A stretch of DNA of 64,000 nt, from positions 96,001-160,000 of IMG/VR virus record IMGVR_UViG_3300026549_000034. One strand, 5' to 3'. The DNA comes from a virus (Duplodnaviria; Caudoviricetes). The first letter of the stretch is position 1. Each line of letters begins with the position of its first letter. The notes beneath the pieces were generated by a model that saw only the letters and a list, made by a program, of their open reading frames with translations, ran no database searches and was not told the DNA's origin. The position numbers and the translations under genes were made by a program. Shown piece after piece: positions 6,048 to 50,136 of this stretch.

Positions 6048-6054
6048 ATATAAT

Positions 6055-6083
6055 TTGAATTTTATTTCTACAGTTACTATATT
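6055..6083 (+). promoter_or_regulatory. Class A promoter candidate TTGAAT-N17-TATATT
   Basis: Exact 17-bp spacing; motif recurs upstream of several + strand genes. Confidence 0.65.
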
Positions 6084-6109
6084 ACTATATATTAAAAATA
6101 AAAAAATAT

Positions 6110-6373: not shown

Positions 6374-6380
6374 AAAATCT

Positions 6381-6779: not shown

Positions 6780-6890
6780 AAATTATGTGAATTTTATTTA
6801 AATATTTCAACATTAATATTCAATTTTAATATCAACAAACTTATAAAAACAAATATATTTTTTAATTACAAACTTTAAATTTTTTAAATT

Positions 6891-7961: not shown

Positions 7962-7993
7962 AAAGTAGAATATATATTTTACTATAAAAAATG

Positions 7994-8019
7994 AAAGAAC
8001 TGACACATGTCAGTTCTTT
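7994..8019 (+). terminator. Intrinsic terminator hairpin
   Basis: AAAGAACTGACA-CA-TGTCAGTTCTTT followed by T. Confidence 0.75.
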
Positions 8020-8057
8020 TTGTTGTTATATATGCATGAAAAATAAAATATAAGATA

Positions 8058-8069
8058 TATTTTTAATTA
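8058..8069 (+). promoter_or_regulatory. Class B (late-type) promoter candidate TATTTTTAATTA
   Basis: Same 12-mer lies about 20-45 nt upstream of many structural and leader-bearing genes. Confidence 0.55.
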
Positions 8070-8107
8070 TATATAAATGATTTATCATATAAGATTTAAT
8101 ATATAAC

Positions 8108-11100
8108 ATGGCAGATTATAGTAATTTAATATCAGCACTTAATGATAAAGGTGTAAATGTAAATGTTAGAAATAGTAAAATACATACCCCATCAGATCAA
8201 GACGGCAAACAAGAAGAATTAAAGGTTGAATATGATTTGATGGATTTAATCTGTGGTATTGCTGGTGCAGCATTATTTGGTAAAACTAATATGAATGATG
8301 CTACCAAATTAAGTAGTTTAATAAGTGGTGATATGTCCCAAAAATCATTATATTCTCATGTTAAACAAATTAGAAATATTTTAGAAGGTACTGAAAGTAA
8401 ACCACTGTATGTTAGATTAAATGATAAAATTACAAATACAGACAAAAGTATAAATATTAGTGGTAATATGTCTGAAAAAATATTATTTGAATATGTTCAA
8501 AAAATTCATAATATTTTAGAAGGTGCTACTGAAAGAAAACCATTATATGTTAAACTTAGTGATAAAACGATAGGAGGTTCAGTACAAAATATTTCATTTA
8601 GTGGATCTGGTAATATTGCTGATACTTTTGCTTCATTAATAGATAAATTAAAAAAAGGTGAAGGAATTAATACAGGAATTGTAAAATATTTTGAAAAATC
8701 ATTAAAACATGGTGGTGATTTATATAATATCTTTGAAAACTTAGGTAAAATAGGAAATAATAATAAATATAAAGAAATACAAGAATATGTATATAATTTA
8801 AATTCTATAATTGAATCATTAATTAAATTGACAGATATAGGATTAATAGCAAGATTAAGAATAAGAATAAATTTAAACTTTATTAAAAACTATATTAATA
8901 ATGATTTATTAGAAATAATAAAAGATATTGATAATAACTTTAAAAATTTAGATTCACATAAAATACAAGGTTTAAATAATGTAAGTGAATTATTTGATAT
9001 TGTTTCTACATTAGGACAACTTGATATAACTGATAGAATAAAAATGTATCGTAACTTAAAATTTATTAAACACTTTTTATTTAAAGATATATTAAGCATA
9101 TTTGAAGGAATTAATAATACATTTGATAATGATATTACAGAAACAAGTGTAGAAACAATAAATGGTTTATTTGGTAGTATAATTAACAATGTATCTATTA
9201 AAAAGGAATTAATTGATAATGCAGAAAATTCTGTTAATTCTATAGGAATTTTACTTGCTGGCAATGATAAGAAATTTGATGAAACTAATTTAGAAGGAAT
9301 AATAGGTATTGCAAATATAGTTAATAGACTAAATCCAATATTTGAAAAATCGGCATTAAGTTTAGATAATATAAAATCATATTTTGATGAATTACAAACA
9401 ATAATAAATGGTATTATACAAGATAATGTTACAACAAGTATAAAATTATTATATGATGAAGTAGATACATTATCTAATGCATTATCTGGTTTTAGCACAA
9501 TAGATTCAAAAGCATTTAATAAAACTATATCTGAAATAATTAAAACACTTACTAAATTAAACGAGAAATTAAAGGGAGAAAATTATTTTGATTCATTATT
9601 AACAAAACTTAGTATAACAAAAGATACTGCTGATGATTTAAATAACACAATAGAAATATTAAATGGAATATCTACAATATCATTTGAATCTGATAAGTTA
9701 ATTAAATTCTTTGAGGATCTAAAAAAAATTGAAACCATATTAAGTAAATTTGCAGCCAATAGAAAAATAACATCATTAGGAATTGAATCATTAAATAGTT
9801 TATCTGAAAAATTAACTGTTTTAATAGAATCATTTAATAAAATTAAACCTGAAACAATTAAACAAATTACTAAGTTAGTACAGGAAGTAGAAAAATTCTT
9901 ACTTATATCAGCAGGTTTACTTATTATAGTTGGATTAATAGGACATAATCTTAGTTTTGAAGATATACTTAAATATATTGGCGTAACTACATTATTGTTG
10001 ATAGTTATTGGTGGATTTATAACTTTATTAAATATTATTCCACTAAAAGCAATAAAAAGAGCATATAAAATATTAAATAGTATTTCATCTCTTATTAAGC
10101 AAACAGCTATAGCATTTGGTATAATTGCATTGGTGTCTAAATTAACTAAGCCTCAAGATATAATTTGGTTTGAAATATTATTTAGCACATTATTGTTTGT
10201 GATTGGTGAAATAACACTTAATTTAAAACAATTTAAGTATGCTAAAGAAGAAAAAACCGTTAGTGATTTTTCATCATTAATACTTTCATTAAGTGCTGCA
10301 TTAGCGTTAGGGGCATTAGTATCTAAATTTATACATATTGATGAAATTTTAACATTTGGTGCTTTACTTGCTGGTTTAATTGTTGCCGTTTCAATTCCAC
10401 TATTATTACTTTCTGTTAGTGGCGGTACAATGATTGAAGGTGCACATGATTTAGGACTACTTATATTAGAATGTACTGTGGGACTTCTTATTGGTGCATT
10501 ATTTATAAATAACCCTGATATTAAAAAAGGTGTTGATGAATTTATATGGACATATTTAGGTTTTGTTAGCGGTATTTTATTGGCAGTTGGAATAGCATCC
10601 AGAATTGCAGGTAACGGTGGGTTGGAAGGAATAAAAGGATTATCAAAAGTCATATTATTTGCAACTGGTGCTATGCTTATAGGTGCTTTTTTATTCAGTG
10701 ATGAAAAAATAAAAGAGGACATAATACAATTTGCTCTAACATTAGGATTATTTATTGGACTTGTAAGTATTGCAGTAGGATTCGGTATTAAATTAATGGG
10801 TGAAAATCCAATGAAGACTATTATTGCGTTAAATGTATTAATAGTAACTATAGCAGGTATGATGACATTTGCCGCTTATGTCATTAAAGATATAGATAAA
10901 TCACTATTATGGAATTTTATAGGACAAGTATTTACACTTATACTTGGTATGTCTGGTATTGTACTATTACTTAGTAAAATAGACAATGAAAAATTAAAAG
11001 CTGGTATTATTGCAATATCAATTATAGGACTTATTGTAATGGGATTTGGATTAGTATTTAGTATATTATATAAAACTTTATCTGATTCACAAGTTAATCA

Positions 11101-14047: not shown

Positions 14048-14097
14048 TGACTAAATTCATTATTAATTATAATTATTATATATAAAGGATTTTTTAT

Positions 14098-14283
14098 ATG
14101 AAACATTACAATATATATTATAGAAATAGCAAAATAAACAACTATCCTATATCTGAAAAGGAATTAAAGGATAATATTATAAACAATACTGATAAGTTCA
14201 TATATAAAAAGGATATTATAACTAACAAAATAAATAAAATAAATAAAAATGACATTCATATTGTTGAGTGTATAGTTGTATAA
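14098..14283 (+). CDS. Small hypothetical protein
   Basis: 61-aa ORF tightly packed between tail genes. Confidence 0.6.
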   Translation: MKHYNIYYRNSKINNYPISEKELKDNIINNTDKFIYKKDIITNKINKINKNDIHIVECIVV

Positions 14284-14286
14284 GTT

Positions 14287-14892
14287 ATGTTGGGATTGAA
14301 AGGCAGAAGAGATGGATTTAGATTGTTACTTCCTAAAGAATTCTTATATAAAGACATAGAAGCAAAATATTCTGAAATCTTAAAACAGAAAAAAGGATAT
14401 TTTCGAAAGCCTATTGATTTTATTAATGAAAGTATACAACGTGTTCAAGTTCTTGGTTTTACTAATGCTTTTATAGAACAACAGCAACAACGTACAGGAA
14501 CACCGACAATAAAAATGAATAGAACTGAAGAAAATGCATTTCCATATCCTGCTTCTGAAAATGTATATAGATCTCCAGTTTCGGCAGCTTCTTTAATGGA
14601 TAAGACATTAAACATTGAATTTAGACATTCATTAGGATATCTTAACTATTTTATGCTATTTGAAAATTTCTGGTATATATATTCTAGGGACATGAAATAC
14701 TCAGATATATGTCATCAATTTTATGTAGACATTTTTAATGAGATTGGTGAAGTATATTGTAAAATAGAATTGGTTGATCCAATTATAAGTGGTATGGATA
14801 TGTTAGACTTAGACTTTACTCAACCAGTTGCACAATCAAGCTCATTTAAAATGGAGTTTAAATATAGCGATTTTAATTTTAAATTTATATAA
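14287..14892 (+). CDS. Tail tube-fold protein (T4 gp3/gp19-like)
   Basis: C-terminal pattern VDIFNE...KIEL..PII..MD.LDLDF....SFKMEFKYSDF typical of tube/terminator proteins; structural context. Confidence 0.55.
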   Translation: MLGLKGRRDGFRLLLPKEFLYKDIEAKYSEILKQKKGYFRKPIDFINESIQRVQVLGFTNAFIEQQQQRTGTPTIKMNRTEENAFPYPASENVYRSPVSAASLMDKTLNIEFRHSLGYLNYFMLFENFWYIYSRDMKYSDICHQFYVDIFNEIGEVYCKIELVDPIISGMDMLDLDFTQPVAQSSSFKMEFKYSDFNFKFI

Positions 14893-14904
14893 TTATTAGA
14901 AAAT

Positions 14905-17190
14905 ATGGCAACATTATATAATGCGGTTTCAAGAAATGGTGATAACAAAACAGAAAAATTATTATTGACATTCTCTGATCTTGTATATATTCATGATGCT
15001 GGTGGATATGATTTAGCAAATGATTGTATAGATGCAGATGCAACTAATATGCCAAATTTTACGCATCATAATAAATATTCATATATTTATACGGGCAGTC
15101 ATAATTATTTGTCAACCACAACAAATATTGCTAGTGATGACCCATATGTAACTATAGAAAACAATACATCGAACAAGAAAATAACTAGATTACGTCGAAC
15201 ATTACCTTATGTAAAAGATCTTTCTACATTTGATAATGGTACTAATCAAATGTTTTATTTTAAAGATAAATATTATACTCCTTATGTTATTCATATAGGA
15301 TTAGAACCACATAGTAATTGTATATCATCTCAGTATCAAGCTTATTATCCAAATAATCGCAGTGCATATTGGACAGGATCAAGTTATACATATACATACT
15401 TACCAAATATTTCATTATATAGTGATATGTATTGCGGTTTATTTAAAGCTACTGATTCTGCCAATGATCCAACTAATGATCTAACGCAATATTCACCGGC
15501 ATCACATATAATAGGAAATGCTAAGTCAACATCTCCATTTTCATACGCTTATTATTTAGGATCATATTTTTATAGATATGTATGGAGAGGTCGTGAAGAA
15601 AATGACGCAAATATTAATACTCATTATAGTGATCCTTTACAACAATGTGTACGACCAGATTGGAATATATTTTCTCGTAATCCTGCAGTTATTAGATTAA
15701 ATAATGGTTTAGCTAATGGTATAAATATTGCGTCAGCTATATCATACATAGATTTAGTAGTTGAATTTAATGCAAATTATGTTAATAATATATTAGGCAC
15801 AAATCTTAATAAATATGTAATAGCAAGGCATACTAATGATACTTATGGTGATGCTAGTGGCGTAGCAAATAAATTTTATTTTAGATTTGGTAGATATACT
15901 AGTAATACTACTTTTGGAGAAAGATATTGGGGTTCAACTGATGATATGGATTGGGGCATATATAATACACAATCACATGCTGTAGAAAGCGCTGTACATA
16001 ATACTAATGCATTTGACTTTGGAAAAGATGATTCAAATATATCAATATTAACAAGATTTGCTGATTTATTAAATTATAATTGTACTACTTATTTTAATAA
16101 TTTAGGAAATGACTTTATAGATGCTAATCAATATGTGTCAAATACTAAATTAGTAATTAAATCTGATTATAGTCCAAATTTTAATGCAACCATTAAAGCA
16201 TTACATATACATGTTGTAAACAATACATCATATATTAATTCATATAATTCATGTTCTATTATAGAAAATCAATATCAATATTGGTATGCAAGAATTGGTA
16301 CGGCATTTAGAAAAAATATGATAAATATATATGTAAATAACGGTTTAATTAATCAGGATACACCATGGGGATGGGATAGTTCTCTTGCTGCAAAAAATGC
16401 ATGTACACCTATACATATATATAGTGGTCCAATAAATGAAAATGGTGGAAATAAACCAATGTATGGAGAAGATGGTGAATCATCAAATAGAAAATATATG
16501 TATTTTAATGGTAATGCTATTATTGAAGATTGTATACCTCTAGACTATTTACAAAGCTCTGTCACAAGCTCTGTCACCCAATATATAGATACTGGCATTC
16601 TCCCAAATAAAAACACCCACATATATATAGAATTTACACCAACAACAATACCTTCACAAGATCCAACCGATCAAAATTCATATAATGTGTATTTTTGTGG
16701 TGCCGCTATGCGTAATAATGTACGTTGGAATATAGGTTTTAACAAAGTAGGCGGTAATTCAAAAATATTTGCTCAATATAATGGAAATAAGGATGAAATA
16801 CCTATCACTTTAATAACAGGTACAAAATATTGGGCAGAATTATATAATGCAAATGATTTTATAACACTTAAATGTGGCACAGATGGTTCAACATTCGGTG
16901 AAATTCAAATTTCACCCGCAGATGATGTATCCACAACCCTTACGCGAACAATTCGTTTATTTGGTTCAAACGCTAGTTCAAACGCTTCAACTAATAATTT
17001 AATATCAAAATGGTCAGGCAAAATACATTGTTGTAAAATATGGAATGGTGATAAGACTGATGCTAATTTATTAATGGATTTAATACCTGTTTCATATAAT
17101 GATACTTATACCAAATGTATGTATGATAGAATATCTAAAAGACTTTTGTATAATAATGGTACTGGGTCATTTACAGGTGGAAATTTTTAA
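14905..17190 (+). CDS. Putative tail fibre / receptor-binding protein with C-terminal LamG-like module
   Basis: 761 aa, N/Y/T-rich; C-terminal YIDTGI...GKIHCCKIWNG...DLIPV...MYDRIS...NGTGSF module typical of gut-phage tail proteins. Confidence 0.55.
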   Translation: MATLYNAVSRNGDNKTEKLLLTFSDLVYIHDAGGYDLANDCIDADATNMPNFTHHNKYSYIYTGSHNYLSTTTNIASDDPYVTIENNTSNKKITRLRRTLPYVKDLSTFDNGTNQMFYFKDKYYTPYVIHIGLEPHSNCISSQYQAYYPNNRSAYWTGSSYTYTYLPNISLYSDMYCGLFKATDSANDPTNDLTQYSPASHIIGNAKSTSPFSYAYYLGSYFYRYVWRGREENDANINTHYSDPLQQCVRPDWNIFSRNPAVIRLNNGLANGINIASAISYIDLVVEFNANYVNNILGTNLNKYVIARHTNDTYGDASGVANKFYFRFGRYTSNTTFGERYWGSTDDMDWGIYNTQSHAVESAVHNTNAFDFGKDDSNISILTRFADLLNYNCTTYFNNLGNDFIDANQYVSNTKLVIKSDYSPNFNATIKALHIHVVNNTSYINSYNSCSIIENQYQYWYARIGTAFRKNMINIYVNNGLINQDTPWGWDSSLAAKNACTPIHIYSGPINENGGNKPMYGEDGESSNRKYMYFNGNAIIEDCIPLDYLQSSVTSSVTQYIDTGILPNKNTHIYIEFTPTTIPSQDPTDQNSYNVYFCGAAMRNNVRWNIGFNKVGGNSKIFAQYNGNKDEIPITLITGTKYWAELYNANDFITLKCGTDGSTFGEIQISPADDVSTTLTRTIRLFGSNASSNASTNNLISKWSGKIHCCKIWNGDKTDANLLMDLIPVSYNDTYTKCMYDRISKRLLYNNGTGSFTGGNF

Positions 17191-35900: not shown

Positions 35901-37610
35901 TTATTTAGTTTCATTTGCTTTCTTTTCAGCTTCTTCTTTAAATTTCCATGACAATTCATCATCTAATACATGCTTCTTTGCTGGATTAATAAGATATCCC
36001 ATTTTTGTCATGATGTCTCTATTAATAAGTATTTTTTGCTTTTTGTTTCTATTGTCAACTAAAGCAAATTCAGCATTTAATAATTTACGTGATCCTATTT
36101 GAATACATGGTATAAGAACTGTTTTTCTATTTTCAGTTACTTGACCGACAATTGCATTTGATTCACCATGTTTCTTGAAATAATATTTTTTGCCTTCAAT
36201 TACTGCTTCAATTAAAGTACCGTTTTCTTCTAATGAATCACATCCAATTGTACTTGCCTTAGCACCATTTCCTGTATCAAATTTTGCTTCAAGAGTAAAT
36301 TGCTGTTCATTTTCTGTTGTAAATGTAATGTCTTCAAGATAACCTATTGATTTTGGTTCTAATACTAATTCATTTATATCATTAATGTTGTCTAAAAGTA
36401 TCTTTACAAAGTTTTCTCCAATTACTTCAGATATACCGTCAGTACCTGGTGAACTATTATATTCTAATACAACATTATCACCAACTTCTGGATTACTTCC
36501 TGAAACTAACGGCATAATGTCTACAGCACACCATGGCATTCCAGATATTTTAGCAACCTTTAATGCAATTTCCTTTTGTTCTTCAGTCAGTTCAACCTTT
36601 TCTGCAGTTGCACCTAAAGATACATTACTTCTAAAATCACCAGATATCTTTACACGTTTCATAGCCGCAAGTATCTTTTGTTGTGTTCTCATAGTCAATA
36701 CATGTACACGAATATCACCGCCATCAGCTTCTTCCTTCTTTTGTACTAACAATTCAAGATCTTCATCTACTGCAAACATTGCTTGAAGTATAGCTAAAAT
36801 ACCTTTACCATTTGTCATAAATACACCAGTACCGCCATGTCCATCAAGTATTTTTACAACATATTCAAACTTTTCATCTGCTTTTAAATCTTTACCAATT
36901 TCTTTATTTACTCTCTTAAGTTTCTTTGATAATGATTCTTCACCATTCTTAATATCATTTTTAGATACTAAAGTAAAACGTGGTTGTGGAATTTCATATC
37001 TTTCAAGTAATACTGCAGATGTATACTTATTAGATGCCTTCTTTGCCGATTGAATTGGATTTATTACAAAGAATCCCCATGCTTGAAGTTCTTTGATAAG
37101 TTCCATACATTCTTCGGATTCTTGAACTCCAAGACGAGTAATTACAATAGTATCAATATTTGATTGTTCATTGACTTTATATTTTGTCTTATCATCACTA
37201 AATGAAATTTCTTTATCAGTAGCTTTATATGAAATTTCATCAGCAACAAATGTAAATATTTCTATATCTGTATTCTTTACAGCATCATTAAGATTTTTTA
37301 GAGTCTTATTTGTTTTTTCTTCTCTATCATTTGTAAAGAAAAGAATGTTCTTAAAGAAATAATTAGACTGTTCTATTTTGTCCTGAATACTATCTTTAGA
37401 TTCAGAATCTTCCATTTTCTTATTAACTTCATCAGATATGTCATTATCATTTTTCTCATCAGGTTTATCATCCTTAATATCTAATAAATTGTCTAATTTA
37501 GTTTCTTCCTTAGTTTCTTCTTCCTTAATAATATTTTGTCTTTTCTGTTTAAGAGTTTCCATTACTTCTGCAATAGTTTCAGGATCTCTATAGTCATATT
37601 GCTTTTTCAT
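35901..37610 (-). CDS. RimK-like ATP-grasp peptide ligase fused to a C-terminal retropepsin-like (RimB-type) protease
   Basis: NKY, VKILDGHGGTGV, DIRVHV, FRSNVSLG, AVDI, LEYNSSPG; C-terminal AKFDTGNGA...ILINR aspartyl-protease pattern. Confidence 0.85.
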   Translation of the reverse strand: MKKQYDYRDPETIAEVMETLKQKRQNIIKEEETKEETKLDNLLDIKDDKPDEKNDNDISDEVNKKMEDSESKDSIQDKIEQSNYFFKNILFFTNDREEKTNKTLKNLNDAVKNTDIEIFTFVADEISYKATDKEISFSDDKTKYKVNEQSNIDTIVITRLGVQESEECMELIKELQAWGFFVINPIQSAKKASNKYTSAVLLERYEIPQPRFTLVSKNDIKNGEESLSKKLKRVNKEIGKDLKADEKFEYVVKILDGHGGTGVFMTNGKGILAILQAMFAVDEDLELLVQKKEEADGGDIRVHVLTMRTQQKILAAMKRVKISGDFRSNVSLGATAEKVELTEEQKEIALKVAKISGMPWCAVDIMPLVSGSNPEVGDNVVLEYNSSPGTDGISEVIGENFVKILLDNINDINELVLEPKSIGYLEDITFTTENEQQFTLEAKFDTGNGAKASTIGCDSLEENGTLIEAVIEGKKYYFKKHGESNAIVGQVTENRKTVLIPCIQIGSRKLLNAEFALVDNRNKKQKILINRDIMTKMGYLINPAKKHVLDDELSWKFKEEAEKKANETK

Positions 37611-39155: not shown

Positions 39156-39716
39156 ATGTATTTGCTAATTATTGAAGGTACTGATAATATAGGTAAAGAT
39201 ACTTTGAAAAATCAATTGATAGATCTATTTGATACTGTTACATTAATTCATTGTAGTTCACCAAAATCAAGAGGATTTAAGTCTTATGAACAAGATAAGA
39301 CATTCTTAACATATGCTGATAATATTGTAAATGGTGTATATGATGGAACGGAATGTATTATAATGAATAGATCACATTATGGAGAATATGTATATGGACA
39401 AATATATAGGCACAGAAATCCTATAGAAATTTCATCTATGATTAATGATTTTGATAAGCTAATAGATTCGAGAATTGATTTAAAAGTAAAATATATTCAA
39501 TTATTAAGTACATCATTAGAATTAAGAAAGAAATATGATGACAATAAATCATTATCATTAATGGATGAACAAAAAATGGAAATAGAAAATAAGCTTTTTA
39601 TGGATGTATACAATCAATCAAAATTTGATAAAAAGCTTATATATGTAAATGACGGTGACAATTTTAGACGTAAAGAAGATATTTATAAAGAAGCATTAGA
39701 TTTTATAAATTCTTAA
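39156..39716 (+). CDS. dNMP (thymidylate-like) kinase
   Basis: IEGTDNIGKDT P-loop, NRSHYGEYVY. Confidence 0.85.
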   Translation: MYLLIIEGTDNIGKDTLKNQLIDLFDTVTLIHCSSPKSRGFKSYEQDKTFLTYADNIVNGVYDGTECIIMNRSHYGEYVYGQIYRHRNPIEISSMINDFDKLIDSRIDLKVKYIQLLSTSLELRKKYDDNKSLSLMDEQKMEIENKLFMDVYNQSKFDKKLIYVNDGDNFRRKEDIYKEALDFINS

Positions 39717-39741: not shown

Positions 39742-40536
39742 ATGAATACAAAAGATATATTTAATATTTTTTTAGAAAAATATAATAATAGAGAATTTCG
39801 TACAATAGGTAATAATGTTCAGCAATCAATAACATTAGAAATTCAAAATGCCCATTTTGAAGTTGATAAACCATGGATTGTTAGAGAACCAAATTATGGC
39901 TATTATAAACGTGAAGAAAAATGGTATTATTCACAATCATTAAATGTTAATGATATTCCTGAAGGTGCACCAAAAATGTGGCAAGCTTGCGCAACACCAG
40001 ATGGATTTATAAATTCTAATTATGGGTGGTGTATATTTTCAAAAGAAAATGGTGATCAGTATAAAAACTGTAAACAACATTTAATTGAAGATCCACATAC
40101 TCGTGAAGCTATTATGATTTATAATCGTCCATCAATGCAACAAGAATATAATAAAAATGGAATGCATGATTTTATGTGTTGTCAGAATGTTCAATATTTT
40201 ATAAATGAATATGATGAATATAATGATATACTTGATTGCATAGTTAATTTTAGAAGTAATGATGCAGTATTTGGATTTAATAATGATGCACTTTGGGCAA
40301 ATCATATATTAGAAAAACTTGCTAATGAATTAAGACCTATTTGGAATAATAAATATGATAAAAATATAGCGGCGGGTCATATATATTGGAATGCCGGTTC
40401 ATTACATATTTATGAAAGACATTTTAAAATTTTAACAGATTTTAATACTAAACAAAATGTCTATAAATATTATGAAGATATTGAAAAACAAAATAACTTA
40501 TTTAGAAAAACCCAAGAATCAATAAATAATGGATAA
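39742..40536 (+). CDS. gp42: dCMP hydroxymethylase (T4 gp42-like)
   Basis: INSNYGW, IMIYNRPSM, DFMC catalytic Cys, RSNDAVFGFNND (cytosine-specifying Asp), WNAGSLHIYERHF closely follow T4 gp42. Confidence 0.92.
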   Translation: MNTKDIFNIFLEKYNNREFRTIGNNVQQSITLEIQNAHFEVDKPWIVREPNYGYYKREEKWYYSQSLNVNDIPEGAPKMWQACATPDGFINSNYGWCIFSKENGDQYKNCKQHLIEDPHTREAIMIYNRPSMQQEYNKNGMHDFMCCQNVQYFINEYDEYNDILDCIVNFRSNDAVFGFNNDALWANHILEKLANELRPIWNNKYDKNIAAGHIYWNAGSLHIYERHFKILTDFNTKQNVYKYYEDIEKQNNLFRKTQESINNG

Positions 40537-41119
40537 AATTCGAGACATAAAATATAAGTTATTAAAAGAACTAAAATGGGATCATATTAAAGAAACTGGA
40601 TATGATTGTAATAGTGGTACAAAATATGTAGAGGTTAAAAATGCATTATTTGAAGTAGATAAAGACAGGATATTCAATACAATTCCTCAACTTTCATATA
40701 TGAGTCCACAATGGTATATAGATAATTATGATCCTATATTAAATAAGAATGATCAATTAAATAAATGTATAAGTAAATTAGTAGAAAATACAAATTCAAG
40801 ACAAGCCGTTATTATAATGGGCGATACTAATGAATTTGATAATATAGATAATACTTTTATATGTACAATGTATATGCATATATTTCTAAATAAGATAAAA
40901 TATGATGTATATGAATTAGAATATATTGTACATATGAGATCTAATGATTGTATAGAATTTATTACTGATTTACAATGGCATAAGAAATTATATAATGATA
41001 TCTTAAATCAATTAAGAGAAAAAACTAAATTAATGATTATGCCAAAAAATATTATATGGAATGCAGACACTATACATTTATATGAACAATTTTTTGAACA
41101 AGCATTAAAAGAATCTTAA
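40529..41119 (+). CDS. Shortened, divergent gp42/thymidylate-synthase-fold paralog
   Basis: SRQAV, FICT, HMRSNDCIEFITD, WNADTIHLYE; lacks the internal segment leading to INSNYG. Confidence 0.8.
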   Translation: MDKIRDIKYKLLKELKWDHIKETGYDCNSGTKYVEVKNALFEVDKDRIFNTIPQLSYMSPQWYIDNYDPILNKNDQLNKCISKLVENTNSRQAVIIMGDTNEFDNIDNTFICTMYMHIFLNKIKYDVYELEYIVHMRSNDCIEFITDLQWHKKLYNDILNQLREKTKLMIMPKNIIWNADTIHLYEQFFEQALKES

Positions 41120-41125: not shown

Positions 41126-41815
41126 ATGAAAAAACTTATTTCAGCTTCTATTATGTGTGCTAAGAACTTATTGAACTTAGAACACGAAATTAAAGAACTA
41201 GAGAAAAACAATATTGATATGTTTCATCTAGATGCTATGGATGGACATTTTGTAAATAATATTACTTTTGGTCCAGACATATTGAACGCTATTCATAAAT
41301 GTGTTACAAAACCTTGTGATTATCATTTAATGATGGATGATCCTTTGACATTTATAGAACGTCTCGAGCTTTCGGCAGATGATATTGTTACAATACATGC
41401 AGAAATTGATCCAGAAAAATTTGATGCAACTATAAAATATTTGAATTCTTTAAAGAAAAGAGGAATTAAGATTGGGGTTGCGATTAATCCAAAAACATCA
41501 ATAGAAGGATTGTATGACTATTTGGAATATATAGACATGATATTAGTTATGCTTATTAATCCTGGATTTGCTGGTCAACCTATTATTGGTGGTATTATGC
41601 AAAAGCCGATATATGTTCGTCAATATTTAGATTCTATAGGGTATGAAAATATAATGATATCTGTTGATGGCGGTGTATCTAATGAACGTGCAGAAATATT
41701 AGCAAAAGGCGGTGTAAATGTATTTGTTGGCGGTACTTCTGGATTATTCAAAAGAAATCAAAATATTAAGACAAGTATTGAAAATTTACGAAAATCATTA
41801 AATACTTCTGATTGA
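41126..41815 (+). CDS. Ribulose-phosphate 3-epimerase family protein, allulose-6-phosphate 3-epimerase (AlsE)-like
   Basis: HLDAMDGHFV, DYHLM, VDGG; AlsE-type SIMC, PGFAGQP and GTSGLF. Confidence 0.88.
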   Translation: MKKLISASIMCAKNLLNLEHEIKELEKNNIDMFHLDAMDGHFVNNITFGPDILNAIHKCVTKPCDYHLMMDDPLTFIERLELSADDIVTIHAEIDPEKFDATIKYLNSLKKRGIKIGVAINPKTSIEGLYDYLEYIDMILVMLINPGFAGQPIIGGIMQKPIYVRQYLDSIGYENIMISVDGGVSNERAEILAKGGVNVFVGGTSGLFKRNQNIKTSIENLRKSLNTSD

Positions 41816-41866: not shown

Positions 41867-43531
41867 ATGAAAGTATTTATAGCAACATCTGGTATAGGTT
41901 CTAGACTTTTAGAACTAACAAAATACACAAATAAGTCAATGATTAAGATAGGTAAGAAGCCAGTTATATCTTATATTATTGATGAATATCCTGAAGATAC
42001 AGAATTTGTAATTACTTTGGGATATTTTGGTGATCATGTACGGCAATATCTTGAATTGGCATATCCAAACAAGAAAATAACATTTGTAACAGTTGATAAT
42101 TATGCAGGTCCAGGATCTTCACAAGTATATTCACAATTACAGGCAGAAAAATATCTTCAAGAGCCTTTTATATATCATGATTGTGATACTATAATTGAGA
42201 ATCTTCAGGATCAAATTCCAATGAAGTTCAATTATAATTTCTTAGTTGGATATGAGACAAATTCGGAATTATATGATGCATTTGATTATGATATTAATAC
42301 AAAGTCAAAATCAAAGAAGTACGAAGTATATGATTTGATTAAGACATATATGAAGCCAGATTCTTTAGTCGGTATGTTGGCTTTTGTCGGTATTTGTGGT
42401 ATATATGATTATAAGGAATTTTGGAAATATATGCACATGGCTTATGAAAATGAACAAGTCCCTTATGATTTCTTAGTATATCATAAATATGGTATGTTTA
42501 AAGATAATTTGAAAGCAATTAAGGTTACTAATTGGGTAGATACTGGAAATATAGCCGGTGTAAAGAATTATCGTAAGCAATGTAAAGATCAATTTTTTAT
42601 ATTAGATAAGAATGATCAGGCAATTTTCATAATCAATAATAAAGTAATTAAGTTCTTTGCAAAAGATGGCGTTGTTGATGATCTTTTGAAACATTATGAA
42701 ACAATTAAAGATTTTTGTCAACCTATAACTGAACATACTAAGAATTTTATATGTTATGATTATATAGATGCTGAGGATGCTATAGTAAAAATGAATCCTG
42801 TTCGTTTTGAAAATTTTTTATATTCATTAAAGAATAATAAATTTTGGTCTAAAGTAGAAAATATTGATGATAAATTGTTTTTTGAGTCTATGAAGAAATT
42901 CTATATAGACAAAAATATGCAACGGGTAAATCAATTTAAAGAATTCTATAAAGTATCTGAAGATGAAGACATATATGTAAATGATATATTGATTCCTAAA
43001 GAATATACTATTGAAAGAATGCTTAATGAAATGATGAATATGAGAGAATGGAAAGAATCTGTTCCTTGTATTTGGCATGGTGATTTTGTATTAGACAATA
43101 TTCTTTATAACCAAAAGGAAGATAAATATATTTTACTTGATTGGAGACCTAATTTTATAAACATTAAAGAATATGGAGATAGAAACTATGATTTTGGTAA
43201 AATGAATCATAATATTACTTTTAATTTCTATAGCGCATATAATGATCTCTATAATGTACAAATAAATGATAATAAGATTTACATTAATATGCTTTGTAAT
43301 AATTATGTATATGAATGTAAAGAAATATTAAAGAAATTTGTAAATGATAATTATAATGTAAGATTTGAATATATTGAAATGATAACTGGTGCATGTTGGG
43401 TAAGTATGTCTCCATTATATTTCTTAAATCCTATTTCTAAACTATTGTTCTATATGGGTAAGCTTACTTTATATATTAATTTGATGAAGCTTCAAAATAA
43501 AAAAATAAATACTATATATGATGAATTATAA
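41867..43531 (+). CDS. Sugar-phosphate nucleotidyltransferase fused to an APH/choline-kinase-like kinase
   Basis: N-terminal SGIGSRL...NKSMI, HDCD, WVDTG; C-terminal HGDFVLDNIL, LLDWR, YDFGK. Confidence 0.85.
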   Translation: MKVFIATSGIGSRLLELTKYTNKSMIKIGKKPVISYIIDEYPEDTEFVITLGYFGDHVRQYLELAYPNKKITFVTVDNYAGPGSSQVYSQLQAEKYLQEPFIYHDCDTIIENLQDQIPMKFNYNFLVGYETNSELYDAFDYDINTKSKSKKYEVYDLIKTYMKPDSLVGMLAFVGICGIYDYKEFWKYMHMAYENEQVPYDFLVYHKYGMFKDNLKAIKVTNWVDTGNIAGVKNYRKQCKDQFFILDKNDQAIFIINNKVIKFFAKDGVVDDLLKHYETIKDFCQPITEHTKNFICYDYIDAEDAIVKMNPVRFENFLYSLKNNKFWSKVENIDDKLFFESMKKFYIDKNMQRVNQFKEFYKVSEDEDIYVNDILIPKEYTIERMLNEMMNMREWKESVPCIWHGDFVLDNILYNQKEDKYILLDWRPNFINIKEYGDRNYDFGKMNHNITFNFYSAYNDLYNVQINDNKIYINMLCNNYVYECKEILKKFVNDNYNVRFEYIEMITGACWVSMSPLYFLNPISKLLFYMGKLTLYINLMKLQNKKINTIYDEL

Positions 43532-44477
43532 TGACATAAAAATAGCTGGTGTAACATGTGCTTTTAATGAATCACAAATGGTAAAATACGTTATGCCATA
43601 TTGGGAACGTATTAAGCCAGATAAATTAATTGTGTATGATAATATGTCAACTGATAATATGTGTGAACTATTAAGAAAATATCCGTATGTAGAAATAAGA
43701 AAATTTGATACTGGCGGTAAATTTAGTGATGAAACACATATTAAAATAAAGTCAGAAACAGCCAAAGAATTAGCAGATGCTGGTTATGATTGGATTTATA
43801 TAGGTGATTTTGATGAAATATTATATACAGAAAATGAAAACTTTAGAGAAGTATTATATGAAATTCAACAAATGGGCGGTAATGTATTTTGTAGAGATAT
43901 GGTATTACCGTTTGATACTACATTAGATGTTTCATTTGATACTAATAAATTACCTCATCAATGTGTACCGAATTATATTACATCTCATGATTGGTCTTCA
44001 TTTTGGGGTTTTTCTAAAGTAACATTAATACATAAGTCAGTACCAAATATACGTTTTAACAATGGGTGTCATCAGGCATATTTTCCGCAAAAAGGAAATG
44101 CTGATTTAGTTGTATTCGGATATCCTATTATTGGTATACATCTAAAATATATTGATTGGAATGTATTGGAAAAGAATTCACATGATAAGCATGATAGAAT
44201 ACAATGGAGAATTCCTGTAGCAAAATCAAAAGTTGATGTTCAATTTACAAAACATTTATATAGTAGATCATGTGGTATGAATAATATAAACAACATGATA
44301 TCTGCAATGAAGAAAAAATTTGATAAAGTAAATGTTAATGTAGATACAACAACTTGGGATAAGTTTAAAGAATATTATGATAATGAATATGATGTAACAA
44401 AAGTTAAATTTAAGCAATATTTAAATAGAACAAATTTTATAACTAAAGATTATTATGAGACAAATAGAAATTCGTAA
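43518..44477 (+). CDS. GT-A fold glycosyltransferase (GT2-like)
   Basis: TCAFNE, VYDNMSTD, WIYIGDFDE, GCH, HLKY. Confidence 0.8.
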   Translation: MMNYNDIKIAGVTCAFNESQMVKYVMPYWERIKPDKLIVYDNMSTDNMCELLRKYPYVEIRKFDTGGKFSDETHIKIKSETAKELADAGYDWIYIGDFDEILYTENENFREVLYEIQQMGGNVFCRDMVLPFDTTLDVSFDTNKLPHQCVPNYITSHDWSSFWGFSKVTLIHKSVPNIRFNNGCHQAYFPQKGNADLVVFGYPIIGIHLKYIDWNVLEKNSHDKHDRIQWRIPVAKSKVDVQFTKHLYSRSCGMNNINNMISAMKKKFDKVNVNVDTTTWDKFKEYYDNEYDVTKVKFKQYLNRTNFITKDYYETNRNS

Positions 44478-45804
44478 AGCAGAAAAGAACATTTTAATTG
44501 GTAAAATTGGAAAGTCAATTAAATTTAAACATTTGGATATTCGTATAGGCGGTGATGCTTGTATGATATTTTATTCATCAATAGCAAGAATGAATCCGGA
44601 GTATAATTTCTTTTGGATTGGTCCTAATCAAATGAATAAATTAAGTGATGAAGAATATGATTATATCTTCCCAAATCATAATGTATATTCAGCATATGAT
44701 TCTAATTATGAAGATCCGAATCATCATCCTTTTTATCCTATTATTAAGTATTTTAAGGACAATAACATTAAGATAGATTTTGCATTACTTATGTCAGGAA
44801 TGTGCTCTGGAATAAATGTACCTAACTTCTTAAGAAGTCCAAAGACAGGAGAATATGTAAAGATACTTAATGCATTCAAAAATTATTGCGGTCCTTATAT
44901 CTATACTCTTAATCAAACTGGAGTACCATTCTATCTTATTTCTGAAGATGCAAGATATATTACAACAAATGCTTCTGACTTATATAATCGAGAAAGAATA
45001 ATCTTCACACAGACTAATGGATATTTTGAACCAATAGAACATATTACTTCAGAAACTGATTGGACTAAGACTACAGAAAAAATTAAATGTATATATGGAT
45101 ATGTAGAAAGAATATTCATGATGGGTCTTGATAAAAATTGGAAAGAAAATATTGATATTGACAGAAAGTTAAATAGTAAAGGAAATAGATTAATTGTAAT
45201 ATCTAATGGTTGTGGTCAAAAGGACATAAATCGTGCAAATGGTGGTAAAAGTTCACGTCTTCCTGGATATAAGAAATATATTATAGACAATCTTAAGGGT
45301 ACAGAATTTGAGAATACTAAGATATATGGACAATGGGACGATAAGACTTATGAAAAATATCCCCAAATAATTGATAAACCATTAGTAGAACTTGATGATG
45401 AGGTGGCTGATGCAAGATATTCATTGGTATATTCTATTATGCCGGGCTTTGTAACCGTAAAAGCATGGGAAATGATTATCAAAGGTCTTATTCCATTTAT
45501 TCATCCAGACTATGATAAAGACAGATTATTAGGTCTTCCAGAATATTGTTATCTTAAAGATGAAAAGGATCTATTAAACAAAATGAGAGAATTGGATTCA
45601 GATAATGACAAATATCTTAAGCTATTAAATGATTGTTTTGCATGTATTTCAGAAGATGATCTTAATGGAAAACGAATGAATAACTTTATATTCAATAAGA
45701 TTTCTGAAGATCTTGGATTTGATTATGTAGAAAAGAATGGTTGTGAATCTATTTTTGATCATTTCTCTAAAGATGTATTTGATTTCAATAAGATTAAAAA
45801 GTAA
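44455..45804 (+). CDS. DNA beta-glycosyltransferase-like protein (T4 BGT fold)
   Basis: YLISEDAR (BGT YLFTDIR), KIYG, GFVTVKAWEM...FIHPDYD (BGT NFITLRVWET...LIDEEFD). Confidence 0.72.
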   Translation: MRQIEIRKAEKNILIGKIGKSIKFKHLDIRIGGDACMIFYSSIARMNPEYNFFWIGPNQMNKLSDEEYDYIFPNHNVYSAYDSNYEDPNHHPFYPIIKYFKDNNIKIDFALLMSGMCSGINVPNFLRSPKTGEYVKILNAFKNYCGPYIYTLNQTGVPFYLISEDARYITTNASDLYNRERIIFTQTNGYFEPIEHITSETDWTKTTEKIKCIYGYVERIFMMGLDKNWKENIDIDRKLNSKGNRLIVISNGCGQKDINRANGGKSSRLPGYKKYIIDNLKGTEFENTKIYGQWDDKTYEKYPQIIDKPLVELDDEVADARYSLVYSIMPGFVTVKAWEMIIKGLIPFIHPDYDKDRLLGLPEYCYLKDEKDLLNKMRELDSDNDKYLKLLNDCFACISEDDLNGKRMNNFIFNKISEDLGFDYVEKNGCESIFDHFSKDVFDFNKIKK

Positions 45805-45806
45805 GT

Positions 45807-46304
45807 ATGGATAAATGTATTGTTATAAGTGATGTAGACGGTTGCCTTACGGATGGCGGATTATACTATACTGAAGAAGGTAAAGTAATGAAACGTTTCG
45901 GTGCCGGTGATCATGAAGGTCTTAAATTATTGAAGAAAAATGGAATATCTGTAGAGTTCATTACTGCAGATAAAGTAGGATATCCTATTGTTGCTAAAAG
46001 AATGAAGGATATGTCTAATTCAACTATTCATATTTTTAATGAGATTGAAAGGTATGATTTTGTAAAGTCATTGAAAAACAAATATGAAACTGTTGTATTC
46101 TTTGGTGATGGGCCTGGCGACGCTTCATTAGCAAGTAAGATGGCATGTGATATATTTGTATGTCCTAATCAATCTCGACAGGAGGTAAAGCTTGTAGCTG
46201 ATTATATTACTGAAACAGATGGTGGACATGGCGCATTCTTAGACATGGCAATATGGGTATCTAAAAAAATAAATAAAGAAAATTATAAAGAATTATATGA
46301 CTAA
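45807..46304 (+). CDS. KdsC-like HAD sugar-phosphate phosphatase
   Basis: DVDGCLTDG, FITA, FGDGPGD, GGHGAF. Confidence 0.88.
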   Translation: MDKCIVISDVDGCLTDGGLYYTEEGKVMKRFGAGDHEGLKLLKKNGISVEFITADKVGYPIVAKRMKDMSNSTIHIFNEIERYDFVKSLKNKYETVVFFGDGPGDASLASKMACDIFVCPNQSRQEVKLVADYITETDGGHGAFLDMAIWVSKKINKENYKELYD

Positions 46305-47577
46305 TAATATAAAATGGGCAGCAATACAACCATTGACTGGTGGTCTATATTTAGGAACAGAAGAAGCTATAGGTCATCCAGCAGAATGGATATTGACATA
46401 TAAAGGATTAAATACAATTAAAAAGGATAAAGCCGATAATGTTACTGGTGTAGGTAATGAAGCATATCTATTAAACTATCTACATAAAGTTGATAGGGAA
46501 GTACCATATTATCAAATGAATAGAAAAATGTTTGATACTAATTTGGATGATATGAATCCGGAAATATTACTTAATGATGAACCTGCTAAGCCAAATTATG
46601 AAAATTTAGATTTAGTAGTTGCATTACCGGTATGTAGTGGATTATCTATGGTTACATCTGCTGGACAAGAAACAAAAGACGGTCGTAATTGTAATATGCT
46701 TTATTTAGCAAAATTGGCATTAACAACAATCAAACCAAAAATTTATATATTCGAAAACGCTCCTACTTTTATGGGTGAACGTGGTGATAGTTTACGAGTT
46801 AGTTTTGAAAAACTTGCTAAAGATAATGGTTATTTAATTGTATATTATAAGACAGATACACATAAACATTATAATTGTCAACGACGTCCAAGAACTTTTA
46901 TATTTTTTATAAGAAAGGATGTAACAAATAATCAATTGCCTGTATTAGATTTTGAAGACAAACCAATGTCTATTCAAGAATTTTTCGACAATATTCCTTA
47001 TGGTTTGACTAATCAAGAAGAATGTAAGCCACGTCCTCATAATTATATATTATTAGATTTCTTCAAAGAAAAATATGGAGAGGAATGGTTTAAGACATTA
47101 GACAATAAGTGCTTAATGAAATTGATAGTAACAGATAAACTATTTGATGAATTATTTGAATATTGTAAGACTTATACAAAAATATCTGAAGATGATATGA
47201 ATAAGTCTATAAAATATTTTAAGCATGTAAAAGATAAGACTGACAGGAAGTTAAATTGGTTTGGTTCAGATATAGTATTTTATAAAAAGGAATTACCGTC
47301 AGTACAATTTAGAAGTATTACAACAACGATGCATCCAAATTGTAAACGAGTATTGACTATAAGAGAAAATCTTGAATTAATGGGAATGCCACATGATTTT
47401 GATTGGTTTGGGGATGAATCTAATCTCCCTAAAATTGCACAAAATGTTCCTGTAAAAACAGCTAAATTTATAATGTCGCAAGCAGTCAATATATTAGAAA
47501 ATAATATCAATATATTTATGGATGGTAATGTTTTATACATAAATAACATTAATAACAAAATTCAGTTAGTGGCATAA
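46297..47577 (+). CDS. C5-cytosine DNA methyltransferase-like protein
   Basis: Atypical motif I QPLTGG, IV PVCSGLS, VI FENAP, VIII QRRPR, IX RVLTIRE...MGMP, X IAQNVP. Confidence 0.8.
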   Translation: MTNNIKWAAIQPLTGGLYLGTEEAIGHPAEWILTYKGLNTIKKDKADNVTGVGNEAYLLNYLHKVDREVPYYQMNRKMFDTNLDDMNPEILLNDEPAKPNYENLDLVVALPVCSGLSMVTSAGQETKDGRNCNMLYLAKLALTTIKPKIYIFENAPTFMGERGDSLRVSFEKLAKDNGYLIVYYKTDTHKHYNCQRRPRTFIFFIRKDVTNNQLPVLDFEDKPMSIQEFFDNIPYGLTNQEECKPRPHNYILLDFFKEKYGEEWFKTLDNKCLMKLIVTDKLFDELFEYCKTYTKISEDDMNKSIKYFKHVKDKTDRKLNWFGSDIVFYKKELPSVQFRSITTTMHPNCKRVLTIRENLELMGMPHDFDWFGDESNLPKIAQNVPVKTAKFIMSQAVNILENNINIFMDGNVLYINNINNKIQLVA

Positions 47578-47662: not shown

Positions 47663-48730
47663 ATGAAAATTTTTCAAATATTATTAAATAAAACAAAAAA
47701 TAGTTCATATAGATATGCTGAAGAATTATATCTATCATTATCATCTATAGAAGATATTGATATTGACCAAAGTATAATAGTTGATAAAAGTGAATTTAAT
47801 CCAGATTTGATAGATATAATTAATTCTTATGATTACGTTTTTATTCATTCAATATCAAAAGATAAAGATTTATATAACATATTAATAAATTTTATTAAAC
47901 CTAAAAAGATATTATTTATTACTCATACTATATTAAAGCAATGGCATAATGATATTAATTTATCATATATTATTCCATTATTGCGAAATGTAAGTAAAAT
48001 AGTAATTAATCCACTTGCATTAGATATAATAAATGAAATTAAGGAAAAAATATCTGATGATCAGTTTAACAAAAAATATGTAGAACTTAAATATGTTTAT
48101 AATTTTTATTTGTTTAATACAATAAATAAAGATAATATCATATCAATGATATCAAATAAGGGAGTACGAACTAATTATGATTTATTCATTAATTTATTTA
48201 AAAACAAAGAAATATTAAATAGAGATTTTATTTGGAAATTATACGGTGTAACAAAGAACATTCAAACTTATTATATTAATGATTTATATATAAACAATAA
48301 AACACAAAAACCTTCATTAATAACTAATTTTGATACAACAGTTATTTCAAAAAATATGATAAATGTATATGGAGAAATAGACAGAAATACATATAAAGAA
48401 GTTATAGAAAAATCATTATTTACATGCAATTTTGATAATGAATCTTATATAAGTTATAATATAATAGATATAATAGGCAATGGATCTATTCCAATAATGT
48501 CAAAAACTGTAGCGCAAAACATAAGAATAAATCAAAAACAAACATTATATGATCTTAAATGCGGTATATTTATTAATGATACATTTGATGAACAAGCTAT
48601 AATAACTATAAATAAATTAGTACAAAGTCCTAATACATACATAAATACATTAAATAAGCATGTAAATATTTTTAAACAAATTTTCAATAATTCAGAAACA
48701 ATCAATAAATTATTACAAAATATAATATGA
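47663..48730 (+). CDS. Degenerate DNA alpha-glucosyltransferase-like (GT-B) protein
   Basis: INSYDYVFIHS, IKPKKILFITH, YNIIDIIGNGSIPIMSK align by eye with T4 AGT; key motifs are altered. Confidence 0.55.
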   Translation: MKIFQILLNKTKNSSYRYAEELYLSLSSIEDIDIDQSIIVDKSEFNPDLIDIINSYDYVFIHSISKDKDLYNILINFIKPKKILFITHTILKQWHNDINLSYIIPLLRNVSKIVINPLALDIINEIKEKISDDQFNKKYVELKYVYNFYLFNTINKDNIISMISNKGVRTNYDLFINLFKNKEILNRDFIWKLYGVTKNIQTYYINDLYINNKTQKPSLITNFDTTVISKNMINVYGEIDRNTYKEVIEKSLFTCNFDNESYISYNIIDIIGNGSIPIMSKTVAQNIRINQKQTLYDLKCGIFINDTFDEQAIITINKLVQSPNTYINTLNKHVNIFKQIFNNSETINKLLQNII

Positions 48731-49431
48731 AAAACATAAATAATTACATATCAGAGAAGCTCAATATAAAAAATATTAAAGTACATCAATATAAGTATTT
48801 TCCAAAGACAAAAGAAGAACTTAGAAAAATCTTAGAAAAAAGATTAGATGAAGACAATAATGCGGATTTGAATGATATTGATGTTAGTGAAATAACTGAT
48901 ATGTCATTACTATTTAATAAGTTAGATCCACATAATATAAATATATCTGGCTGGGATGTAGGTAATGTTACTGCAATGGGTGCAATGTTTAATGGATGTG
49001 ATAATTTTAATTCTGACTTAAGTAAATGGGACGTTAGTAAGGTTACTAATATGGATTCAATGTTTGCTGATTGTGGAGAATTTAATTCTGATCTAAGTGA
49101 ATGGGATGTATCTAAAGTTACAAATATGCAAGCTATGTTTACTAGATGTCATAAACTTGATACCGACTTAAATAAATGGGATGTATCTAATGTTACTGGA
49201 ATGGATTCAATATTTTATGGTTGTAATAACTTTAATTCTGACTTAAGCAATTGGAATGTATCTAATGTTACTGATATGTATAAAATGTTTTATGATTGTA
49301 ACAGCTTTAATTCTGATCTAAGTAAATGGGATGTAAGTAATGTTACTGATATGCGTAATATGTTTTTTGGATGTGATTCGCTAAAAAATAAACCAAGCTG
49401 GTACAAGAATAAAATAAAAATTAAAAAATAA
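48727..49431 (+). CDS. DUF285/BspA-like repeat protein (6 repeats) with EKLNIK leader
   Basis: MKNINNYISEKLNIKNI; 25-aa W(D/N)VS repeats. Confidence 0.88.
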   Translation: MKNINNYISEKLNIKNIKVHQYKYFPKTKEELRKILEKRLDEDNNADLNDIDVSEITDMSLLFNKLDPHNINISGWDVGNVTAMGAMFNGCDNFNSDLSKWDVSKVTNMDSMFADCGEFNSDLSEWDVSKVTNMQAMFTRCHKLDTDLNKWDVSNVTGMDSIFYGCNNFNSDLSNWNVSNVTDMYKMFYDCNSFNSDLSKWDVSNVTDMRNMFFGCDSLKNKPSWYKNKIKIKK

Positions 49432-49452
49432 TATATAATATATATAAATGAT

Positions 49453-50136
49453 ATGAAAAACCTAAAAGACGTCATTATAGAGAAGCTCAATATAAAAAAT
49501 ATTAAAATACAATATACTTGTCATCCAAAAACAAAAGTAGAACTTCAATTAATATTGAGAGAAAGACTATCAAAAGATAATAATGCTAATTTGAATGATA
49601 TTGATGTTAGTGATATAACCGATATGTCTAATTTATTTGAAAAATTAAATCCTCATAATATAGATATATCTGAATGGAATGTATCAAATGTTATCAATAT
49701 GAGTTATATGTTTTATGATTGTCAAAATTTTAACTGTGACTTAAGTAAATGGGACGTAAGTAATGTTACAAATATGATAAATATGTTTTATGATTGCAAA
49801 GAATTTAATTCTGACTTAAGCAAATGGAATGTAAGTAATGTTAAAAAAATGAATGGTACATTTGCTGGCTGTATAAAATTTAATTCTGATCTAAGCAATT
49901 GGGATGTTAGTAATGTTAATAATATGGGTGGACTATTTGCTAGATGCCAAAATTTTAATGCAGATCTAAGTAATTGGAATGTATCTAATGTTCAAAACAT
50001 GGTAAATATGTTTTATGAATGTGAAAAATTTAAAGGCAAAGGATTAGAAAAATGGAAACCAACCAAATTATTAATATATAAGAATATATTTTATAAGACT
50101 CAATTAGAAAAAAATCCTCCAAAATGGTATAAATAA
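49453..50136 (+). CDS. DUF285/BspA-like repeat protein (5 repeats plus a degenerate one) with EKLNIK leader
   Basis: MKNLKDVIIEKLNIKNI; 25-aa repeats. Confidence 0.88.
   Translation: MKNLKDVIIEKLNIKNIKIQYTCHPKTKVELQLILRERLSKDNNANLNDIDVSDITDMSNLFEKLNPHNIDISEWNVSNVINMSYMFYDCQNFNCDLSKWDVSNVTNMINMFYDCKEFNSDLSKWNVSNVKKMNGTFAGCIKFNSDLSNWDVSNVNNMGGLFARCQNFNADLSNWNVSNVQNMVNMFYECEKFKGKGLEKWKPTKLLIYKNIFYKTQLEKNPPKWYK

Follow-up and report, generated by a model that had tools for sequence, protein, structure and literature searches.

The window analysed here is a 64,000-nucleotide stretch (bases 96001-160000) of the 193-kb IMG/VR record IMGVR_UViG_3300026549_000034, which is estimated to be 68% complete. 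Its G+C content is about 26%, and phage hallmarks are present, among them a lysozyme that has a peptidoglycan-binding domain. Homologues of the epimerase described below that are 63-99% identical to it lie on contigs of 392-412 kb, and one such contig, a record of 410,106 bp, has an estimated completeness of 97%. The source is therefore an uncultured jumbo phage lineage.

The epimerase gene lies in a block of co-directional, tightly packed and often overlapping genes. The features of this block are listed below, with the basis of each assignment in brackets; L numbers denote loci used for comparison.

39156-39716 (+), conserved protein of 186 aa, encoded before the TS homologue in relatives; candidate P-loop (d)NMP kinase (a weak PPK2 match, on the L013 homologue only)
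39742-40536 (+), gp42-like dCMP hydroxymethylase with a TS fold (profile matches, alignment)
40529-41119 (+), shortened TS-fold paralogue of 196 aa, overlapping the gp42-like gene (profile, alignment)
41126-41815 (+), sugar-phosphate 3-epimerase of the Rpe family (PF00834) with an AlsE-type long beta8 loop, 229 aa (motifs, profiles, trees)
41147-41158 (+), S-I-M-C motif of the epimerase, residues 8-11 (M-C is restricted to long-loop members of the family)
41561-41581 (+), PGFAGQP of the epimerase, residues 146-152, in the beta7 phosphate-binding loop (a less specific marker)
41732-41749 (+), GTSGLF of the epimerase, residues 203-208, in the beta8 phosphate-binding loop (matches E. coli AlsE exactly and exceeds the Rpe loop by one residue)
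41867-43531 (+), fusion of an N-terminal sugar-1-phosphate nucleotidyltransferase and a C-terminal APH-like kinase, or NT-kinase, 554 aa (architecture of AfhE and of RB69 gp53+gp52)
43518-44477 (+), GT2 (GT-A) glycosyltransferase, present in some relatives only (profile)
44455-45804 (+), probable GT-B glycosyltransferase of 449 aa, member of a four-gene core (sequence matches, synteny)
45807-46304 (+), KdsC/YrbI-type HAD phosphatase of 165 aa, member of the same core (profile, synteny)
46297-47577 (+), C5-cytosine methyltransferase-like protein beside the module (profile), kept in the close relatives L005, L007, L013 and L014

Some other genes accompany the block. A RimK-type ATP-grasp protein of 569 aa is encoded upstream on the opposite strand (35901-37610, -) and has equally placed homologues in L005, L007 and L013. 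Just downstream of the modification genes lie two adjoining DUF285 / PARCEL-repeat proteins (48727-50136, +). Within the block, the shortened TS paralogue retains the Cys, the RSND motif and the Asp of the cytosine type. L005 has this gene as well, whereas L007, L013 and L014 yield only weak matches to it.

The epimerase reading frame starts with ATG and has no internal stops. The PF00834 profile matches residues 5-204 with 164.6 bits (cut-off 21.1), covering profile positions 2-195 of 198. The active site is intact: H34, D36, H67 and D181 occupy the aligned His/Asp/His/Asp metal-ligand and catalytic positions, which are invariant in the phage clade and in the references in three alignments. 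The product is predicted to be active as a metal-dependent 3-epimerase of ketose phosphates, within the long-loop branch.

The TS homologue bears on the base that would carry a sugar. It is 42-48% identical to T4-type dCMP hydroxymethylases and has Asp both at the ThyA-169 position (RSND) and at the cytosine-specifying ThyA-177 position. Asn at ThyA-169 is a marker of 5-hydroxycytosine synthases (PMC13326640), and it is found in RB69 gp48 (RSQN). The two Asp residues point to 5-hydroxymethylcytosine as the most likely acceptor base.

Loop length and placement in the epimerase family

The first-pass annotation had read the motifs SIMC, PGFAGQP and GTSGLF as a sign of a hexulose-type (AlsE) rather than a pentulose-type (Rpe) enzyme, and it had named the corresponding motifs of both. 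All three are present in the translated reading frame. Comparison with the E. coli K-12 alsE, rpe and sgcE sequences also bears out the motifs it had named: AlsE (b4085) has SLMC, PGFAGQP and GTSGLF, and Rpe (b3386) has SILSADF, PGFGGQ and G-SAIF, where the hyphen marks a gap of one residue in the final loop. The same gap is seen in S. pyogenes Rpe (2fli) in a HMMER alignment.

Loop length can be followed across the whole family. A total of 267 epimerase relatives were collected and reduced to 159 sharing less than 62% mutual identity. The beta8 loop was called long when it reads G-T/S-S-x-hydrophobic-F and short when it reads G-S-x-hydrophobic-F; it is long in 85 of the 159 and short in the other 74. 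Of the long-loop proteins 78 carry the M-C dipeptide, which is absent from every one of the short-loop proteins. PGFAGQP was rejected as a discriminating motif, since eight short-loop proteins among the 159 share GFAG. Judged across these relatives, the motifs are subfamily characters carried by homology, and chance matches are excluded.

Phylogenetic analysis gives a similar picture. In a FastTree phylogeny of the 159 sequences, 70 short-loop proteins including E. coli Rpe form one clade, and the phage epimerase falls in a separate long-loop clade. A second tree was made with IQ-TREE (LG+C20 PMSF, 72 rows) after the columns of all three motifs had been removed to avoid circularity. Here the phage epimerase again lies on the long-loop side, within groups at 97-100% ultrafast bootstrap; in the quick tree, a 19-member long-loop group has 99% SH-aLRT. 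The loop trait needs only two changes on the IQ-TREE tree, and a single change suffices in 26% of bootstrap trees. Support for the backbone between the long-loop and the short-loop groups is weak (81 SH-aLRT). Forcing the phage clade together with the short-loop proteins makes the tree 63 log-likelihood units worse and is rejected by the AU test (p 0.007). A phylogeny with Rpe and AlsE references had been named at the outset as the way to check the AlsE reading, and it places the protein outside the canonical Rpe clade; the clustering with Rpe that would have counted against that reading is not seen.

Another line of evidence comes from profiles built without the clade of the phage epimerase and without the E. 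coli references. The phage protein scores 262.6 bits on the long-loop profile and 228.5 bits on the short-loop, Rpe-type profile, 34 bits lower. As controls, the long-minus-short difference is +26 bits for E. coli AlsE and -38 bits for E. coli Rpe. Motifs, trees and hold-out profiles thus agree that the signatures are of the AlsE type rather than the Rpe type. These comparisons assign the epimerase to the long-loop (AlsE-type) branch of the Rpe family, of which it is a previously undescribed member.

Belonging to this branch does not make the protein an AlsE. E. coli AlsE (PDB 3ct7/3ctl) is the best match of solved structure, with 137.7 bits and about 34% identity, and it shares with the phage epimerase SxMC, PGFAGQP, GTSGLF, the longer beta8 loop and the metal-ligand positions. 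However, AlsE is encoded in an allose catabolic operon, whereas the context of the phage gene is viral and anabolic. The phage protein scores 177.1 bits on the AlsE equivalog NF007266, below the cut-off of 271, and in both trees it falls in a different long-loop clade. It also has a three-residue insertion after beta4 that is absent from the references. Like Rpe, the phage protein has G, L and N at the positions that in E. coli AlsE are taken by the S of TLSPF and the T and D of MTVDPGF. G-to-S, L-to-T and N-to-D are among the changes that mark the catabolic AlsE clade of PMC12216980, and the G, L and N of the phage protein map tentatively onto those positions. The protein thus lies outside the catabolic clade of AlsE orthologues (E. 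coli, Klebsiella, C. innocuum) and lacks its substitutions. On sequence grounds the phage epimerase is not an orthologue of AlsE, so that the AlsE identity first proposed holds for the type of signature and fails for orthology.

Canonical Rpe (b3386; 2fli) shares the fold, the family and the catalytic residues with the phage protein, at about 33% identity. It differs in its shorter loop, in having SILSA for SxMC and in having mostly GFGGQ. The canonical Rpe equivalog TIGR01163 gives the phage protein 184.7 bits, under its cut-off of 212.6. Among these NCBIfam models only NF004076, a broad subfamily model called 'ribulose-phosphate 3-epimerase', is passed; therefore annotation pipelines would name the epimerase Rpe. 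A pentose-phosphate label was what the first-pass annotation had expected from automated methods, and close bacterial relatives do carry the name ribulose-phosphate 3-epimerase.

The type of loop is informative about the substrate. Chan and colleagues are said to have found in 2008 that the beta8 loop of E. coli AlsE is the structural determinant of its preference for hexulose-6-phosphates, and single-residue deletions in this loop reportedly switch the preference to ribulose-5-phosphate. In the same study AlsE and Rpe were reportedly promiscuous, each turning over the substrate of the other. The original statement that the epimerase would fix the identity of the sugar is thus too strong: allulose, allose, altrose or, with help from the host, arabinose are all possible.

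Gene neighbourhoods in viruses and bacteria

The genes for the epimerase, the NT-kinase, the GT-B glycosyltransferase and the HAD phosphatase form a core that is syntenic in every complete related phage locus that was fetched (L005, L007, L011 and L014). The same four genes are syntenic in a distant phage, L017, whose proteins are 22-31% identical to those of the window. This conserved linkage argues that the epimerase is part of a sugar pathway and not a stray metabolic gene.

Viral contigs were scanned for the epimerase in two ways. The scan with a single protein gave no matches, and the alignment-based scan gave four loci.

The module of L017 (IMGVR_UViG_3300033463_000078, positions 7604-12327) has the order GT-B, KdsC-like HAD, SIS, long-loop epimerase, NT-kinase. 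The SIS protein, of 194 aa, is encoded between the HAD phosphatase and the epimerase. It matches the 6-phospho-3-hexuloisomerase model TIGR03127 with 146 bits (E 1e-42), just below the 160-bit cut-off, and it barely matches arabinose-5-phosphate isomerases (E about 4e-4). RB69 gp55 has the opposite pattern and is KpsF/KdsD-like. The L017 epimerase favours the long-loop hold-out profile by 22 bits. With a hexuloisomerase-like SIS protein beside a long-loop epimerase, the homologous module of L017 is, as far as profile matches tell, tied to hexulose-6-phosphate chemistry. The module is followed immediately by a family-B DNA polymerase gene.

Related genes also occur in other viral settings. The only homologue of the NT-kinase fusion in the phage database, at 35% identity, comes from Marine virus AG-345-E15 (MH319741.1; L019, positions 4707-16211). 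It is part of a sugar cluster with two SDR epimerase/dehydratases, a GHMP kinase, an APH-like kinase, a HAD domain protein and a 2OG-Fe(II) oxygenase, and with no Rpe-family gene. As a different cluster without the epimerase, it was rejected as a clue to the sugar of the window. The NT-kinase fusion looks like a reusable chassis.

A contig from a giant-virus MAG (L016, positions 10001-10669) encodes a canonical short-loop Rpe, with a long-minus-short difference of -39.5 bits, beside a PP2C phosphatase and a class II aminoacyl-tRNA synthetase. Viral Rpe-family genes are thus, by profile, of both the long-loop and the short-loop type.

In bacteria, the nearest relatives are 46-48% identical to the phage epimerase. 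In two glycan loci (L008, positions 8261-12303; L012, positions 5267-8543), long-loop epimerases adjoin an IspD-like cytidylyltransferase and a reductase of the ADH or SDR type, with genes for LicD or a CDP-alcohol phosphatidyltransferase also nearby. Sets of an IspD-like cytidylyltransferase and a reductase (TarI/TarJ-like) classically make CDP-ribitol from ribulose-5-phosphate. Given this neighbourhood, the clade of the phage epimerase and these relatives may handle pentuloses. Alternately, the two loci may encode a CDP-alditol route with an alditol other than ribitol, and a CDP-hexitol product is conceivable.

The nearest homologue from a species-representative genome (43% identity) is found in a member of the Bacteroidales whose genome also holds a canonical short-loop Rpe. 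The presence of both points to the long-loop protein being a second, specialised paralogue with a distinct role. The surroundings of the best hit among bacterial genomes (L020) gave no clue to function.

The NT-kinase, HAD, GT-B and other cluster proteins of the phage had no tblastn matches in 83 bacterial loci around epimerase relatives, most of them AlsE-like. Within this sample of 83 loci, the linkage of the epimerase to the module is viral.

A proposed sugar pathway and its alternatives

A known system with which the module can be compared is the route to UDP-D-arabinofuranose in the phages RB69 (gp51-55), DLP3 (gp81-83) and HY126 (AfhE/AfhF), which is used for DNA glycosylation and leads to arabinosyl-5-hydroxycytosine DNA. 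In this route a SIS isomerase converts ribulose-5-phosphate to arabinose-5-phosphate, which a bifunctional enzyme phosphorylates with its kinase domain to the 1,5-bisphosphate. The 5-phosphate is then taken off by a HAD phosphatase, and the nucleotidyltransferase domain forms the UDP-sugar (PMC13326640).

The window likewise has an NT-kinase, a HAD phosphatase, DNA glycosyltransferases and a TS-fold enzyme in one cluster, with the fusion of nucleotidyltransferase and APH-like kinase encoded close to the HAD and glycosyltransferase genes. The fusion matches RB69 gp53 (nucleotidyltransferase, E 0.013) and gp52 (kinase, E 0.004), weakly but colinearly. The two systems differ in three respects. 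The arabinose route has a GmhB-like phosphatase and the window a KdsC-like one; the TS homologue has Asn169 there and Asp169, of the hydroxymethylase type, here; and a SIS arabinose-5-phosphate isomerase stands at the entry of the arabinose route, where the window has an Rpe-family epimerase. Neither SIS nor RpiB isomerases, which would open a route to arabinose or allose, were found in the 193-kb window record, in the 97%-complete 410-kb relative or in a third genome (G002), and the SIS protein of L017 is of the hexuloisomerase-like kind. By analogy, the pathway is a variant of the known phage DNA-glycosylation scheme in which an epimerase takes the place of the arabinose-5-phosphate isomerase.

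On balance it is probable that the module makes an NDP-rare-hexose with which 5-hydroxymethylcytosine is glycosylated, and that conversion of fructose-6-phosphate to allulose-6-phosphate is its entry step. The process would start with host fructose-6-phosphate, which the epimerase would convert to D-allulose(psicose)-6-phosphate in a committed first step. The kinase domain would then phosphorylate the anomeric position, the HAD phosphatase would strip the terminal phosphate and the nucleotidyltransferase domain would yield the NDP-sugar, presumably in this order. The gp42-like neighbour would supply 5-hydroxymethylcytosine, onto which the GT-B enzyme, with the GT2 enzyme in some phages, would put the sugar. 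The sugar itself may be allulose, or allose or altrose if a host isomerase intervenes. If so, the phage probably decorates its own DNA with a home-made rare hexose.

The chemistry of the sugar phosphates is one reason to prefer a hexulose. In a pentulose-5-phosphate O5 is blocked, so no ring can form and there is no anomeric hydroxyl for the kinase unless the sugar is isomerised to an aldose. A hexulose-6-phosphate can close straight into a furanose ring. Since no SIS or RpiB isomerase was found in the window record or the 97%-complete relative, we infer that its enzyme set is self-sufficient only if the substrate is a hexulose.

An anabolic use of allulose-6-phosphate has a precedent, by analogy, in the angustmycin pathway of Streptomyces. 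AgmD, an AlsE homologue with 31% identity to AlsE, converts fructose-6-phosphate to allulose-6-phosphate, which is activated at its anomeric C2 and, once transferred, loses the phosphate at C6 (PMC8599513). By its published description, AgmD thus resembles the phage epimerase in being an AlsE homologue put to anabolic use. It differs in that a PRPP-synthetase-like pyrophosphokinase carries out the activation and the sugar is transferred to adenine, with no nucleotidyltransferase, glycosyltransferase or DNA involved.

A stricter form of the hexose pathway is that the phage activates the ketohexose itself. Psicofuranose-6-phosphate would be phosphorylated at the anomeric O2 and dephosphorylated at C6, and the resulting NDP-D-psicofuranose would be used by the GT-B enzyme on 5-hydroxymethylcytosine. 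This form is doubtful, and we know of no precedent for a nucleotidyltransferase acting on a ketose-2-phosphate. If true, neither a nucleotide-activated 2-ketohexose donor nor a ketose on DNA would have an earlier example, as far as is known to us and as far as the literature search reached; that search gave no relevant paper on allulose, psicose or allose on phage DNA.

Another model is that the epimerase has Rpe activity and turns xylulose-5-phosphate into ribulose-5-phosphate, from which host KdsD would make arabinose-5-phosphate and the phage NT-kinase and HAD phosphatase UDP-arabinose, as in RB69, DLP3 and HY126. The module architecture fits such a route, Gram-negative hosts possess KdsD (arabinose-5-phosphate isomerase), and AlsE-type enzymes reportedly retain activity on ribulose-5-phosphate (Chan and colleagues again). 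The passed NF004076 cut-off and the TarI/TarJ-like neighbours of the bacterial relatives point the same way. The model is nonetheless unlikely, since the loop is long and AlsE-like, the AU test rejects a placement with Rpe and the TIGR01163 score is under its cut-off. Moreover, the partner isomerase in L017 is hexuloisomerase-like rather than like an arabinose-5-phosphate isomerase, and Asp169 puts the TS homologue with the hydroxymethylases and not with the 5-hydroxycytosine synthases that are linked to arabinosylation. A phage would also have little reason to duplicate a near-equilibrium housekeeping step and yet omit the committed isomerase.

The epimerase may instead act on some other ketose phosphate of similar or greater length (such as tagatose-6-phosphate/sorbose-6-phosphate, a 3-hexulose-6-phosphate or a heptulose-7-phosphate) or on a later intermediate, giving a sugar that is neither derived from allulose nor arabinose. 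The phage clade is indeed distinct from every characterised enzyme and has the insertion after beta4, L017 adds a 3-hexuloisomerase-like protein, and the logic of kinase, phosphatase and nucleotidyltransferase is also that of the heptose pathway. What makes this quite unlikely is that fructose-6-phosphate is the sole abundant hexulose-6-phosphate in the host, that the loop matches AlsE in both length and sequence, and that the characterised long-loop enzymes (E. coli AlsE and AgmD) all use fructose-6-phosphate/allulose-6-phosphate. A plain auxiliary metabolic gene, serving the pentose-phosphate pathway for nucleotide supply and functionally unlinked to its neighbours, is what a default annotation would suggest, and phages sometimes do carry pentose-phosphate genes. 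It is highly improbable here, given the tight, often overlapping co-directional packing and the synteny with NT-kinase, GT-B and HAD genes that persists down to 26% identity.

The rare-hexose pathway, if correct, has consequences for phage biology. Which restriction, CRISPR and glycosylase defences a phage escapes depends on the sugars on its DNA. To our knowledge, the sugars reported so far are glucose, arabinose and chains of galactose and glucose. The module predicts a further sugar, which uncultured jumbo phages would make for themselves from fructose-6-phosphate. The entry enzyme would be the swappable part that sets the sugar on a shared chassis of kinase, phosphatase and nucleotidyltransferase. 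The annotation 'ribulose-phosphate 3-epimerase' also conceals a sizeable long-loop branch whose roles, in bacteria as in viruses, would be specialised and anabolic.

Homologues of the window's GT-B glycosyltransferase (24-29% identical) are found in isolated phages, namely Pseudoalteromonas phage vB_Psh_XG4 and the Enterococcus phages 9183, Planchet and TJE4. They are possible experimental handles for acceptor specificity.
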